From: Escherichia coli
GTDB lineage: Bacteria; Pseudomonadota; Gammaproteobacteria; Enterobacterales; Enterobacteriaceae
Assembly: GCF_024700885.2 (NCBI RefSeq)
Contig: NZ_CP117016.1
Strand: one strand, 5' to 3'
Length of the DNA: 64,000 bases
The notes beneath the pieces were generated by a model. That model saw nothing but the letters and a program-made list of their open reading frames with translations, was not told the DNA's origin and did not search any database. Positions 6,927 through 12,003 of the stretch are shown here, piece after piece. How positions within the stretch are numbered: the stretch's first letter is position 1; every line of letters starts with the position of its first letter. The translations under genes were made by a program, and so were the position numbers.

Positions 6927-7278
6927 AGCTCAACCTCCTGCCGCGCTAAAAAACCTGTAACTTCAGTCACTTTAATAGTAAGACAATCCTTAACCTCTGG
7001 CAATTTTTGCTAAGCATCAATGAAAACAGCATGTTAAATGCAAGACTGTTGCGTACGGAAAAATATTTACTTTGCACGATTAATAATCAGTAGCTGAAAG
7101 CAGTCAGCCAGTGATAAAGTACAGATACCGCATTCATGCTCCTCGTGGTTATGTCCTGACTAGTCTTTACACTCTTTACAGGAACCATTGTCGTACATGA
7201 TGGCCCAACCAATTGAGTGTACCGCTGTCGACATGGAATCTTCTGCGATACAACAATTCGTATCTACAGAAGGTAACT

Positions 7279-8199
7279 ATGTTTCCACAATGCAAATTTT
7301 CCCGCGAGTTTCTACATCCTCGCTACTGGCTCACATGGTTTGGGCTTGGTGTACTCTGGCTTTGGGTACAGCTTCCTTATCCTGTTCTCTGCTTTCTCGG
7401 CACGCGTATTGGCGCAATAGCGCGACCATTCCTGAAACGGCGTGAATCTATCGCCCGTAAAAACCTGGAACTTTGTTTCCCACAGCATTCTGCGGAAGAA
7501 CGCGAGAAGATGATTGCCGAAAACTTTCGTTCACTCGGCATGGCGCTGGTAGAAACCGGCATGGCGTGGTTCTGGCCCGACAGTCGCGTACGTAAATGGT
7601 TTGATGTTGAAGGGTTGGATAACCTTAAACGCGCACAAATGCAAAATCGCGGCGTAATGGTTGTCGGCGTCCATTTTATGTCGCTGGAACTGGGCGGCCG
7701 CGTGATGGGACTGTGCCAACCAATGATGGCTACCTATCGTCCACATAATAATCAGCTGATGGAATGGGTGCAGACCCGTGGGCGCATGCGCTCTAACAAA
7801 GCGATGATCGGCAGAAATAATCTGCGCGGCATTGTCGGTGCACTGAAGAAAGGTGAAGCGGTATGGTTTGCTCCCGATCAGGATTATGGTCGTAAAGGCA
7901 GCTCCTTCGCGCCGTTCTTTGCGGTGGAAAATGTCGCCACAACCAATGGTACGTATGTCCTTTCACGTCTCTCTGGCGCAGCCATGTTAACCGTAACGAT
8001 GGTAAGAAAAGCGGATTACAGCGGATATCGTTTGTACATCACCCCAGAGATGGAAGGCTACCCGGCAGATGAAAATCAAGCCGCTGCCTATATGAACAAG
8101 ATTATCGAAAAAGAGATCATGCGCGCACCGGAGCAGTACCTCTGGATCCACCGTCGCTTTAAAACGCGCCCGGTGGGAGAATCGTCGCTATACATTTAA
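7279..8199 (+). CDS. lpxP: Lipid A palmitoleoyl acyltransferase (cold-induced late acyltransferase)
   Basis: LpxL/LpxP-family ORF; six-frame ORF starts at 7213 but the ATG at 7279 (MFPQCKFSREF...) gives the expected 306 aa. Confidence 0.85.
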   Translation: MFPQCKFSREFLHPRYWLTWFGLGVLWLWVQLPYPVLCFLGTRIGAIARPFLKRRESIARKNLELCFPQHSAEEREKMIAENFRSLGMALVETGMAWFWPDSRVRKWFDVEGLDNLKRAQMQNRGVMVVGVHFMSLELGGRVMGLCQPMMATYRPHNNQLMEWVQTRGRMRSNKAMIGRNNLRGIVGALKKGEAVWFAPDQDYGRKGSSFAPFFAVENVATTNGTYVLSRLSGAAMLTVTMVRKADYSGYRLYITPEMEGYPADENQAAAYMNKIIEKEIMRAPEQYLWIHRRFKTRPVGESSLYI

Positions 8200-8554
8200 C
8201 AAACTGCTCTTACTCTTTCCCTCCTCAAATCAGCCATAATAACCTCATGGTTTTTATGGCTTTTTTCTTAAGGTTTTTTCCTTCGCTGAATCTCTAATTA
8301 TTACCGTCAGAAATTAAACTGTCGCCGATATGAGACACCTGTAAGTTACTAAAAGTAAATAAGAAAATGCCTCTTGTCTCGTTTCAGTTTTAGGCGTACA
8401 TTAGCGCCGTCTGGAGCAGTTTAGCTCAGAATTCTGGGGTGATGCCCACGGTAAAATACAGGACTTTTAAGGTCGTTTTGCCCGGTGTCAACTCACTGTA
8501 TCAGGTGTAATGAAGTCATTCAGGCGTAACAGTAATTACGCGGAGAGATGTAAA

Positions 8555-8626
8555 GTGAAATATTTCTTTATGGGCATTTCTTTTATGGTCATCGTTTGGG
8601 CCGGTACTTTTGCCCTGATGATCTAA
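8555..8626 (+). CDS. ypdK: Very small hydrophobic membrane protein, 23 aa
   Basis: GTG-initiated ORF encoding (M)KYFFMGISFMVIVWAGTFALMI, matching the K-12 small protein YpdK as I recall it. Confidence 0.5.
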   Translation: MKYFFMGISFMVIVWAGTFALMI

Positions 8627-8643
8627 AAGCAAACTGTGCAATG

Positions 8644-8679
8644 AAAAACAGGAGCCATCAGGCTCCTGTTTGCATTTTT
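8644..8679. terminator. Bidirectional rho-independent terminator between ypdK (+) and alaC (-)
   Basis: Stem aacaggagcc / ggctcctgtt (8647-8670) flanked by an A-run upstream and a T-run downstream. Confidence 0.55.
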
Positions 8680-8690
8680 GAGGTCGGTGT

Positions 8691-9929
8691 TTATTCCGCG
8701 TTTTCGTGAATATGTTTGCTGCTGGCGGGTAGTAAACCATCGGCACGGAACATCGCTTTAATCCCACGAATCGCCTGACGAATACGGTCGCGGTTTTCAA
8801 TCAGTGCAAAGCGAACATGCGTGTCGCCGTAGTCGCCAAAGCCAATCCCCGGAGAGACACAGACCTTCGCTTCGTTCAGCAGCTTCTTGGCAAATTCCAG
8901 CGAGCCCATGGCAGCATACGGTTCCGGGATTTTCGCCCAGACATACATCGAAGCCTTCGGCATTTCGACCATCCAGCCCGCTTCATGCAGCCCTTTTACC
9001 AGTACATCACGGCGGCGTTTGTACTGTTCAGCAATGTCGCGCACGCACTGTTGATCGCCCTCCAGCGCCGCAATCGCTGCCACCTGCAACGGCGTAAAGG
9101 TGCCGTAATCGTGATAGCTTTTAATACGTGCCAGCGCGCTGACCAGCGTTTTGTTGCCAACCATAAAGCCGATACGCCAGCCCGCCATGTTGTAGCTTTT
9201 CGACAGCGTAAAGAACTCGACCGCCACATCGCGTGCACCCGGCACCTGCATGATTGACGGCGCTTTCCAGCCATCGTAGACGATATCGGCATAGGCCAGG
9301 TCATGGACCACCAGCACATCGTAGCGTTTCGCCAGCGCCACAACCTTCTCAAAGAATTCCAGCTCCACGCATTGCGCGGTTGGATTCGACGGGAAGCCGA
9401 GGATCATCATCTTCGGTTTCGGATAACTTTCGCGAATGGCGCGTTCCAGTTCGTTGAAGAAATCGACACCTTCCACCAGCGGCACTGAGCGTACCTGCGC
9501 CCCGGCAATCACCGCGCCGTAAATATGAATCGGGTAGCTTGGATTAGGCACCAGTACAGTGTCACCATGATCCAGCGTCGCCAGCATCAGATGCGCCAGT
9601 CCCTCTTTCGAACCAATGGTGACGATGGCTTCTGATTCCGGGTCGATCTCGACGTCGTAGCGATCCTGATACCAGCGGGAAATGGCGCGACGTAACCGCG
9701 GAATGCCGCGTGAAGTAGAGTAACCATGCGTGTCCGGTCGCTGGGCCACCGTACATAATTTTTCGACGATATGCGGCGGAGTCGCACCGTCCGGGTTACC
9801 CATACTGAAATCGATAATATCTTCGCCGCGCCGACGCGCAGCCATTTTCAGTTCAGCGGTAATATTAAAAACGTAGGGCGGGAGACGATCAATGCGCGTA
9901 AAGCGACGTTCAAGGCGAGTGTCAGCCAT
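8691..9929 (-). CDS. alaC: Glutamate-pyruvate aminotransferase (PLP-dependent aminotransferase class I)
   Basis: 412-aa [51 protein letters not shown]; aminotransferase fold motifs. Confidence 0.9.
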
Positions 9930-10305
9930 AATTTCCTCAGATTAACGTTAGCGCCCGGACCGTCCGAGCGACGCTGCCACGATGGTGGCTGTTTTGAAAA
10001 TAGCCTGATTAATTTCTGTCTGTCCAGCGTTTTAGAACATTTTTATCAATGGCTTTAAATGAGGAACTCCACTTCAAAAACAGGAAATTTATCTGCGCTA
10101 ACAAGAAAATTACCACTCATTTTATTAACATTATAATTTCAATAAATTTACCAAGCAGATGTGCATTATCAAGAGATGCATTGCTAATACACCATTTATC
10201 TTTCAATCCCCTTTTAAAATTGTGGTTTTTCCTCAAAAACGGCCTGCTGGTCATCAGCCTTCAGGTTACCTATCATAGAGGTTTAATCCTTATTCAGAGT
10301 CACCC

Positions 10306-12003
10306 GTGCACGAAATATTCAACATGCTGCTGGCGGTCTTCGATCGGGCAGCGTTAATGCTTATCTGCCTGTTCTTTCTCATCCGTATCCGCCTGTTTCG
10401 CGAACTGTTGCACAAGTCGGCACACTCACCGAAAGAGCTGCTCGCCGTTACCGCCATTTTCTCGCTGTTCGCCCTGTTCAGCACCTGGTCCGGCGTTCCC
10501 GTAGAAGGCTCGCTGGTGAACGTACGTATTATCGCGGTGATGTCAGGCGGGATTCTTTTTGGCCCGTGGGTAGGCATTATTACCGGCGTGATCGCAGGTA
10601 TTCACCGGTATTTAATTGATATCGGCGGCGTGACGGCGATCCCCTGCTTTATCACCAGCATTCTGGCGGGTTGTATATCGGGCTGGATCAACCTGAAAAT
10701 CCCCAAAGCACAGCGCTGGCGCGTCGGTATTCTCGGCGGCATGTTATGTGAAACGTTGACCATGATTCTGGTGATTGTCTGGGCACCAACTACCGCGTTG
10801 GGGATCGATATCGTCTCTAAAATCGGGATTCCAATGATCCTCGGTAGCGTCTGTATCGGCTTTATTGTGCTGCTGGTGCAAAGCGTTGAGGGCGAAAAAG
10901 AGGCCAGCGCCGCGCGGCAGGCCAAGCTGGCGCTGGATATCGCCAACAAAACGCTGCCGCTGTTTCGCCATGTCAATAGCGAGTCATTACGCAAAGTTTG
11001 TGAAATTATCCGCGATGATATTCATGCCGATGCGGTGGCGATTACCAATACCGATCATGTGCTGGCCTATGTTGGCGTGGGTGAACACAACTATCAGAAT
11101 GGCGATGACTTCATTAGCCCGACTACCCGACAGGCGATGAATTACGGAAAAATCATCATTAAAAACAATGATGAAGCCCACCGCACACCAGAGATTCATT
11201 CCATGCTGGTGATCCCATTGTGGGAGAAAGGCGTTGTGACCGGAACACTGAAAATTTACTACTGCCACGCGCATCAGATTACGTCATCATTACAGGAAAT
11301 GGCGGTCGGTCTGTCGCAAATCATCTCCACGCAACTGGAGGTTTCACGCGCCGAGCAGCTACGTGAAATGGCAAATAAGGCAGAGCTTCGCGCCCTGCAA
11401 AGCAAAATTAATCCCCATTTCCTGTTTAACGCTTTGAACGCTATTTCATCGTCGATCCGTCTGAATCCGGATACCGCTCGCCAGCTGATCTTTAATCTGT
11501 CGCGTTATCTACGCTATAACATTGAATTAAAAGACGATGAGCAAATCGATATCAAAAAAGAGCTGTATCAAATTAAAGACTATATTGCCATTGAGCAGGC
11601 CCGCTTTGGCGACAAGCTGACGGTTATCTATGATATTGATGAAGAGGTGAATTGCTGCATTCCCAGCCTGCTGATCCAACCGTTGGTGGAGAACGCCATT
11701 GTCCACGGTATTCAGCCTTGCAAAGGTAAAGGCGTTGTCACCATCAGCGTTGCAGAGTGCGGTAATCGGGTACGCATTGCGGTGCGGGATACCGGGCACG
11801 GCATCGATCCAAAAGTCATTGAGCGGGTCGAAGCGAACGAAATGCCGGGCAATAAAATTGGCCTGCTGAATGTCCATCATCGCGTGAAGTTATTGTATGG
11901 CGAGGGACTGCATATCCGCCGTCTGGAACCAGGAACGGAAATTGCGTTTTACATTCCTAACCAACGCACCCCTGTCGCCTCACAGGCTACGTTATTGCTT
12001 TGA
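10306..12003 (+). CDS. ypdA: Sensor histidine kinase, LytS-type (multi-TM N-terminus plus HATPase)
   Basis: 565-aa ORF, GTG start; hydrophobic N-terminal half and C-terminal kinase motifs ([17 protein letters not shown]). Confidence 0.85.

Follow-up and report, generated by a model that had tools for sequence, protein, structure and literature searches.

The ypdK locus

The window analysed here is a stretch of 64,000 nucleotides of the Escherichia coli contig NZ_CP117016.1 (RefSeq assembly GCF_024700885.2). Between the genes lpxP and alaC it carries a small GTG-initiated open reading frame, ypdK, together with a predicted promoter, a predicted structured leader and an intrinsic terminator hairpin (Table 1). 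The ORF reads GTG AAA TAT TTC TTT ATG GGC ATT TCT TTT ATG GTC ATC GTT TGG GCC GGT ACT TTT GCC CTG ATG ATC TAA and encodes a peptide of 23 residues, MKYFFMGISFMVIVWAGTFALMI. The hydropathy of this peptide (GRAVY 1.73; 2.12 for the best 19-residue window; K2 as the sole charged residue) fits the prediction of one transmembrane helix. The lpxP-ypdK-alaC arrangement, the GTG start and the length are common to the window and to ypdK of K-12 MG1655 (b4680; NC_000913.3, 2496921..2496992; YP_002791250.1), and the two ORFs are identical at 72/72 nucleotides. The NCBIfam equivalog NF033437 recognises the peptide with 57.5 bits (cutoff 30; E 9.4e-16), residues 1-23 aligning with profile positions 1-23, and a Pfam search with the peptide returned no family. 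The preliminary description of this DNA, made from its letters, had reported a GTG-initiated ORF of 23 codons encoding a single transmembrane helix and had proposed a match to K-12 YpdK. The 23 sense codons between the GTG and the TAA are as described, the hydropathy prediction agrees with a single helix, and the proposed match is borne out by the nucleotide identity and the family score.

As a gene, ypdK is already known and catalogued. PMC3009722 attributes 18 small membrane proteins to Hemm et al. 2008 and counts ypdK among them. The E. coli genomes in RefSeq carry WP_010723117.1, ‘membrane protein YpdK’, at the same coordinates, and the CDS annotated in strain 746 coincides exactly with that of Table 1. 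A 501-nt query around the ORF is matched, with 97-100% identity, in 5422/5426 complete E. coli genomes, with ‘ypdK: membrane protein YpdK’ annotated under the match in all sampled E. coli records; the exact peptide is on record under that name on at least 1000 contigs, and the median copy number is one place per genome. Confirmation of ypdK therefore adds little as far as the gene itself is concerned, and its value is that of a quantitative case for validating a 23-codon ORF from sequence alone.

Table 1. Features of the ypdK locus, in window coordinates
Feature	Coordinates	Strand	Remarks
lpxP	7279..8199	+	upstream flank
Conserved upstream dyad and A-rich region	8320..8350		conservation
ACACCTGTAAGTT, matching the FabR core motif ACAnnTGTnnnnT proposed for the Salmonella region (PMC4804515)	8335..8347		about -74..-62
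ACACCTGT	8335..8342		within the FabR core-motif match
Predicted -35 hexamer TTGTCT (conserved CTTGT)	8374..8379	+	conservation
Invariant block GGCGTACATTAGCGCCGTCTGG	8393..8414	+	at least 90% identity over 55 Enterobacteriaceae sequences
GGCGTACA	8393..8400		start of the invariant block
GCGTACA, fabA/fabB-type half-site	8394..8400		at -15
Predicted -10 hexamer TACATT	8397..8402	+	inside the invariant block GGCGTACATTAGCGCCGTCTGG
Predicted hairpin H1, 5'-proximal (UCUGGAGC...GCUCAGA)	8410..8430	+	from +2 of the predicted transcript; per-sequence folding
Invariant palindromic single-stranded block CAGAATTCTGAG	8427..8438	+	conservation
Predicted helix H2, 5' arm (GGGGTGATGC; GAGGTGATGC in most genera)	8436..8445	+	SD-like; consensus fold, pair counts
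Predicted helix H2, 3' arm (GTGTCAACTC; GCATCAGCTC or TTTCACCTC in other genera)	8485..8494	+	anti-SD-like; consensus fold, pair counts
Predicted hairpin H3, GCGTAA-CAGTAA-TTACGC	8524..8541	+	8524..8529 pairs with 8536..8541; ends directly at the SD
Shine-Dalgarno core GGAGA	8542..8546	+	GGAG (8542..8545) ends 9 nt before the GTG; CGGAG invariant in the leader alignment
ypdK CDS	8555..8626	+	GTG start, 23 codons, TAA at 8624..8626; predicted single-pass membrane peptide
Intrinsic terminator hairpin	8646..8680		A-run before, T-run after; between the convergent ypdK and alaC stop codons
alaC	8691..9929	-	downstream flank, convergent

Conservation and coding capacity

Conservation was assessed by AlaC-anchored synteny at 80 Enterobacterales loci, one per species, with a local tblastn search for YpdK. 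A YpdK-like ORF convergent to alaC is present in 75/80 species, which belong to the Enterobacteriaceae, the Erwiniaceae and Serratia, while at the five other loci, one of them a contig end, a relaxed motif search found no ypdK. In all of these species (75/75) the ORF starts with GTG, and 74/75 have GGAG at a distance of 6-10 nt before this codon. The length of the ORF is 23 codons in 55 species; in the other 20 it is 24, owing to an additional E, K or A. Conservation of the frame in relatives had been chosen beforehand as the check on which the ORF should stand or fall; both the frame and the GTG/SD signal turned out to be conserved there, and the ORF stands.

Among 69 distinct nucleotide versions of the ORF, entropy at codon positions 1, 2 and 3 amounts to 0.57, 0.19 and 1.13, respectively. 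Residues Y3, M6, G7, S9, G17, T18 and F19 are invariant and W15 and M22 nearly so, yet all four synonymous codons are used for each of G7, S9, G17 and T18. The in-frame pN/pS, pooled, is 0.276; for the +2 sense frame the value is 2.08, and for the antisense frames 1.83, 0.45 and 2.65. That the antisense frame with mirrored codon positions also stays below 1 (0.45) is expected from mirroring, so that dN/dS by itself leaves the strand undecided, which is settled instead by the invariant GTG and the SD sequence. Openness of the frame was dropped as a coding test, since over the same 69 nt the +2 sense frame is open in 75/75 species and one antisense frame in 71/75. What places the ORF above chance is the frame-specific substitution pattern combined with the conserved start and SD signals. 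Judged by these comparisons, the ypdK frame is to be regarded as protein-coding and under purifying selection across at least three families.

Two other readings of the frame were weighed against this one. Short ORFs are plentiful here (56 of 20 aa or more overlap the 3.5 kb around ypdK) and two further frames of the block are mostly open, which would suit a chance, untranslated ORF lying in a conserved non-coding terminator or UTR region; set against the frame-specific substitutions, the invariant GTG and SD sequence, a length that stays fixed at 23-24 codons and the match to the NCBIfam equivalog, this explanation is effectively refuted on the comparative evidence. The other reading concerns the start. 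Since 8510..8626 is listed as one ATG-initiated ORF in the window, the true product of ypdK could be a longer peptide of 38 aa (MKSFRRNSNYAERCKV-KYFF...), but this is very improbable: 30/75 species have an in-frame stop codon two codons ahead of the GTG, only a minority carry an upstream ATG in this frame, and at no conserved position, the extension runs over hairpin H3 and the SD sequence, and the GTG start is the one annotated in both RefSeq and K-12.

A minimal start-stop, ATGTAA, lies between the SD sequence and the GTG in E. coli (8548..8553). In most other genera the ATG is kept at this place (GGAGnGATGA), out of frame and with no immediate stop.

Genomic context

The convergent stop codons of ypdK and alaC are separated by a median of 54 nt. 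The preliminary description had placed a terminator hairpin downstream of the ORF, and one is indeed found at 8646..8671, 19 nt past the ypdK stop, with an 11 bp stem and a 4 nt loop followed by GCATTTTT. A hairpin of at least 6 bp occurs in 73/73 species with a normal gap, and 44 distinct 5' arms are found among the species, which indicates that the terminator is conserved in position and variable in sequence; it is probably bidirectional and shared by the two genes.

The upstream side of ypdK is far less constant. The gene lpxP is the upstream neighbour in only 17/75 species, so that the original placement of the ORF between lpxP and alaC is valid for no genera other than Escherichia, Citrobacter, Salmonella and Enterobacter. 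Within the Enterobacteriaceae more than 25 unrelated genes are found upstream of ypdK, always at a distance of at least ~250-400 nt. On the loci compared, alaC and not lpxP is the evolutionarily stable neighbour.

In all 19 Erwiniaceae (19/19), ypdK is located 100-210 nt downstream of, and on the same strand as, genes for a DHA2 MFS-like permease and an EmrA/HlyD-like adaptor (e.g. L063 4557..7208), both of which score under the EmrAB equivalog cutoffs. The idea that YpdK could be an accessory subunit of an EmrAB-like pump in this family was downgraded to a lead, because ypdK carries a separate promoter block in these species and has no such pump beside it in the Enterobacteriaceae.

Several individual loci deserve mention. 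In E. coli NCTC9040 a copy of IS1A is inserted between ypdK and alaC (L002 3495..4192), where it disrupts the shared terminator region and leaves the ypdK ORF intact. In Kluyvera genomosp. 1 (L017 4636..6131; also L021) a class A beta-lactamase-like ORF lies directly upstream of ypdK and divergent from it; it comprises 322 aa from a TTG or 291 aa from the first ATG, and a 159-aa ORF follows it. The locus presumably resembles the chromosomal context of the CTX-M progenitor genes, in which case these genes would have been mobilised from the chromosomal surroundings of the ypdK-alaC junction. The contig labelled Pseudomonas resinovorans DSM 21078 (L081), with an AlaC 91% identical to that of E. 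coli and no ypdK, is probably a contaminant or a mislabelled Enterobacterales contig. Finally, a GTDB representative labelled E. coli SCPM-O-B-8794 (L003) has a leader ~33 nt shorter than that of the window (119 vs 152 nt from the -10 hexamer to the GTG) and an LpxP of only 95% identity; it may come from a divergent Escherichia lineage.

Predicted promoter

A segment of about 280 nt preceding the GTG accompanies ypdK whichever gene lies next to it. In this segment the conserved CTTGT is found 17-18 nt upstream of TACATT, and 54/55 Enterobacteriaceae, as well as Serratia, carry the pattern TTGnnn-N17/18-TACATT, which turns up in 25/1500 shuffles. A strict regular expression found no such promoter in the Erwiniaceae (0/19), but its apparent absence was overturned by a relaxed -10 block, GTAnATT[AG]G, which is located 120-150 nt upstream of the GTG in 17/19 of them. 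A consensus promoter scan is silent at this place, because only 8/12 positions match.

A tiling array has recorded a plus-strand transcript running from 148 nt upstream of the ypdK start (~8407) into the ORF (PMC3009722, supplementary file 3), and the abundance of the ypdK transcript rises ~2-fold after UV (log2FC +1.06; PMC3009722). Conservation and this low-resolution transcript boundary together suggest that a sigma70-type promoter (-35 TTGTCT, -10 TACATT, GC-rich discriminator) would direct a transcription start near 8409. The product would be a monocistronic ypdK RNA of ~270 nt with a leader of ~146 nt.

The sole consensus promoter-like match in the intergenic region lies on the minus strand at 8297..8325 (GCGACA-17-AATAAT). 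Both of its hexamers fall within blocks conserved across genera (TGTCGCC and ATTTATTAC). The regulatory region of ypdK could conceivably give rise to a divergent transcript as well, but conservation stops near 8280. The sequence TCAGCTCTCTATA(A/C)TCAG was considered as a sigmaS-like -10 element and dropped as the main reading, since the covariation assigns this stretch to H2 as its 3' arm; a second, internal promoter is conceivable. A sigmaS ChIP-seq paper that names lpxP concerns the yfdY/lpxP promoter and not that of ypdK.

Predicted leader structure

A consensus structure of the leader was obtained by RNAalifold from 28 leaders and evaluated by pair counting. In its helices 95.8% of cells are paired, against 86.8 ± 1.0% in shuffles (0/500), and 36 cells carry double-sided changes, against 13.2 (0/500), all counted on the same alignment of related sequences from which the structure was taken; with slid partners, 28-55% of cells are paired. 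As predicted from this alignment and from the folding of single sequences, three elements would form in the leader: a hairpin at the 5' end, a helix between distant segments and a hairpin directly next to the SD sequence.

The long-range helix H2 has 96.4% of its cells paired and contains covarying pairs, e.g. AU13/UG8/UA5. Its arms resemble SD (GAGGUGAU) and anti-SD (UCACCUC) sequences, a similarity that is suggestive at the sequence level. Among distinct Enterobacteriaceae leaders, 47/50 have a hairpin of 4-7 bp that corresponds to H3 and ends 0-2 nt ahead of GGAG; its stem sequences are of many different kinds, and double-sided changes are seen at every counted pair. H3 is found in only 3/16 Erwiniaceae/Serratia leaders. 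The MFE structure of the E. coli leader contains both H2 and H3. A hairpin of at least 4 bp within the first 30 nt, corresponding to H1, is predicted in 50/51 distinct sequences with a mean z of -1.2, but its stems are variable and its support is weaker than that of H2 and H3. In the Erwiniaceae, CGATCC at the leader's 5' end has its complement in GGGATCG, located just upstream of the SD sequence. No claim is made for a hairpin enclosing the start codon in E. coli, which relies on G-U pairs and whose 5' arm differs in other genera.

An Rfam scan of 7000..10500 at E<=1 returned no leader family; its sole hit was a sub-threshold match to plastid psbJ over the ORF and the terminator (23.5 bits vs a gathering threshold of 65.6). 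The conserved promoter, the structured leader and the phylogenetic breadth of ypdK are not described in the annotations or the literature searched, and the leader is a candidate for a cis-regulatory RNA of a new family that precedes the gene of a small protein.

Possible link to FabR

[quoted passage not shown] The authors considered regulation ‘unlikely’, since ddg and yfdZ are convergent (PMC4804515). The name ypdK has 0 occurrences in that paper, which holds no expression result for the gene (PMC4804515), and the literature search found no paper linking FabR to ypdK. An autonomous ypdK promoter between the two flanking genes may, as a hypothesis, explain the Salmonella FabR ChIP peak.

The FabR core motif occurs in only 12/56 species (44/2240 shuffles), and its centre near -70 is an unusual place for a repressor site. 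The heptamer GCGTACA exactly reproduces the left half-site of the fabA and fabB operators and is found at -15 in 39/56 species (14/2240 shuffles); part of it coincides with the -10 hexamer, and this overlap could by itself account for the conservation of the heptamer. A PWM built from three validated 18-bp operators did not detect the canonical 18-bp FabR palindrome (fabA AGCGTACACGTGTTAGCT, fabB GGCGTACAAGTGTACGCT) in the ypdK promoter region: the best score in this region of the window is 4.0 bits, compared with 23-27 for the training sites, and across 55 species the mean best score is -0.9, compared with -0.7 in shuffles.

On this evidence, regulation of ypdK by FabR is a tentative proposal with the odds against it. 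The same doubtful standing attaches to a broader scheme, in which ypdK would be the missing target of the orphan FabR site, YpdK would belong to the unsaturated-fatty-acid and membrane-homeostasis regulon with fabA, fabB and trhA/yqfA, and the gene would further be controlled by the ~146-nt structured leader with its SD/anti-SD-like helix. The link would, if true, resolve a ChIP peak that was dismissed on account of the convergent flanking genes. It would also provide a physiological context for YpdK in membrane lipid unsaturation. The gene beside ypdK in E. coli, lpxP, is that of the cold-induced palmitoleoyl transferase.

Nature of the ypdK product

No reported function of YpdK was found in the literature searched. 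By analogy with other small membrane proteins and the positive-inside rule, the single lysine K2 would place the N-terminus on the inside, and the helix of the peptide would pack, within the membrane, either against a second copy of YpdK or against some larger membrane protein. The helical-wheel conservation moment is not significant (2248/10000 permutations reach it); conservation is not confined to one face of the helix, and therefore no single packing interface is indicated.

The extreme shortness and hydrophobicity of YpdK, the ~146 nt structured leader with a weak predicted start-codon hairpin in E. coli, and the modest UV induction of the transcript, like that of tisB and dinQ, could together point to a type I toxin-like peptide comparable to Ibs, ShoB, TisB or DinQ, whose mRNA the leader would keep silent until processed. 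Type I toxin loci are patchy and multicopy, however, while ypdK has a median of one copy per genome, is vertically inherited at one syntenic position in three families (75/80 species) under purifying selection, and thus does not behave as a type I toxin–antitoxin locus. The 54-nt gap to alaC is filled by the terminator and leaves no room for an antisense RNA gene, the SD sequence is unpaired beside H3 and not sequestered by a conserved helix, and in a by-eye look at the conserved promoter alignment no LexA-type CTGT-N8-ACAG box was apparent. A toxin is hence quite improbable. Improbable too, if not to the same degree, is that a ~270-nt regulatory RNA, of dual function or acting as a sponge, would be the main functional product and the peptide secondary. 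The leader is as deeply conserved as the ORF, with covariation-supported helices and invariant single-stranded blocks such as CAGAATTCTGAG, which would suit such an RNA, but selection in the ORF operates at the protein level, as seen from the invariant residues encoded by all synonymous codons and from the pN/pS of 0.28 against 2.08 in the +2 frame; moreover, the RNA matches no Rfam family, and target complementarity was not identified.

The reading preferred here is that this DNA contains a genuine protein-coding gene, ypdK (b4680), which forms an autonomous conserved unit and would encode a 23-residue single-helix inner-membrane peptide; we assign it a probability of about 0.88.

Comparison with known systems

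Characterised small modulators of the inner membrane include AcrZ, KdpF, CydX, MgrB and MgtS, which act on AcrB, KdpABC, CydAB, PhoQ and MgtA, respectively. YpdK shares with such proteins a single hydrophobic helix, a length of less than 50 residues and a short ORF that is missed by gene callers, together with the conservation of small and polar residues within that helix (G7, S9, G17 and T18 in YpdK). It differs from them in that its context suggests no partner and that ypdK forms no operon with a membrane complex in the Enterobacteriaceae.

The ypdK mRNA resembles those of tisB, dinQ, shoB and zorO in encoding a short hydrophobic peptide, in having a leader of ~150 nt with stable helices and in being UV-responsive. 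Unlike these, ypdK is single-copy, syntenic and vertically inherited, no antitoxin RNA locus is apparent beside it, and sequestration of the SD sequence is not conserved.

As for the FabR-controlled promoters of fabA, fabB and yqfA/trhA, the ypdK promoter shares with them the ACAnnTGT core, and with fabA and fabB the left half-site GCGTACA and a -35 element of the TTGT type (TTGTTC in fabA/fabB). In fabA and fabB the 18-bp palindrome fills the spacer between the -35 and -10 elements, whereas no full palindrome is detectable at ypdK, where the core motif is located near -70 and the half-site over the -10 hexamer.
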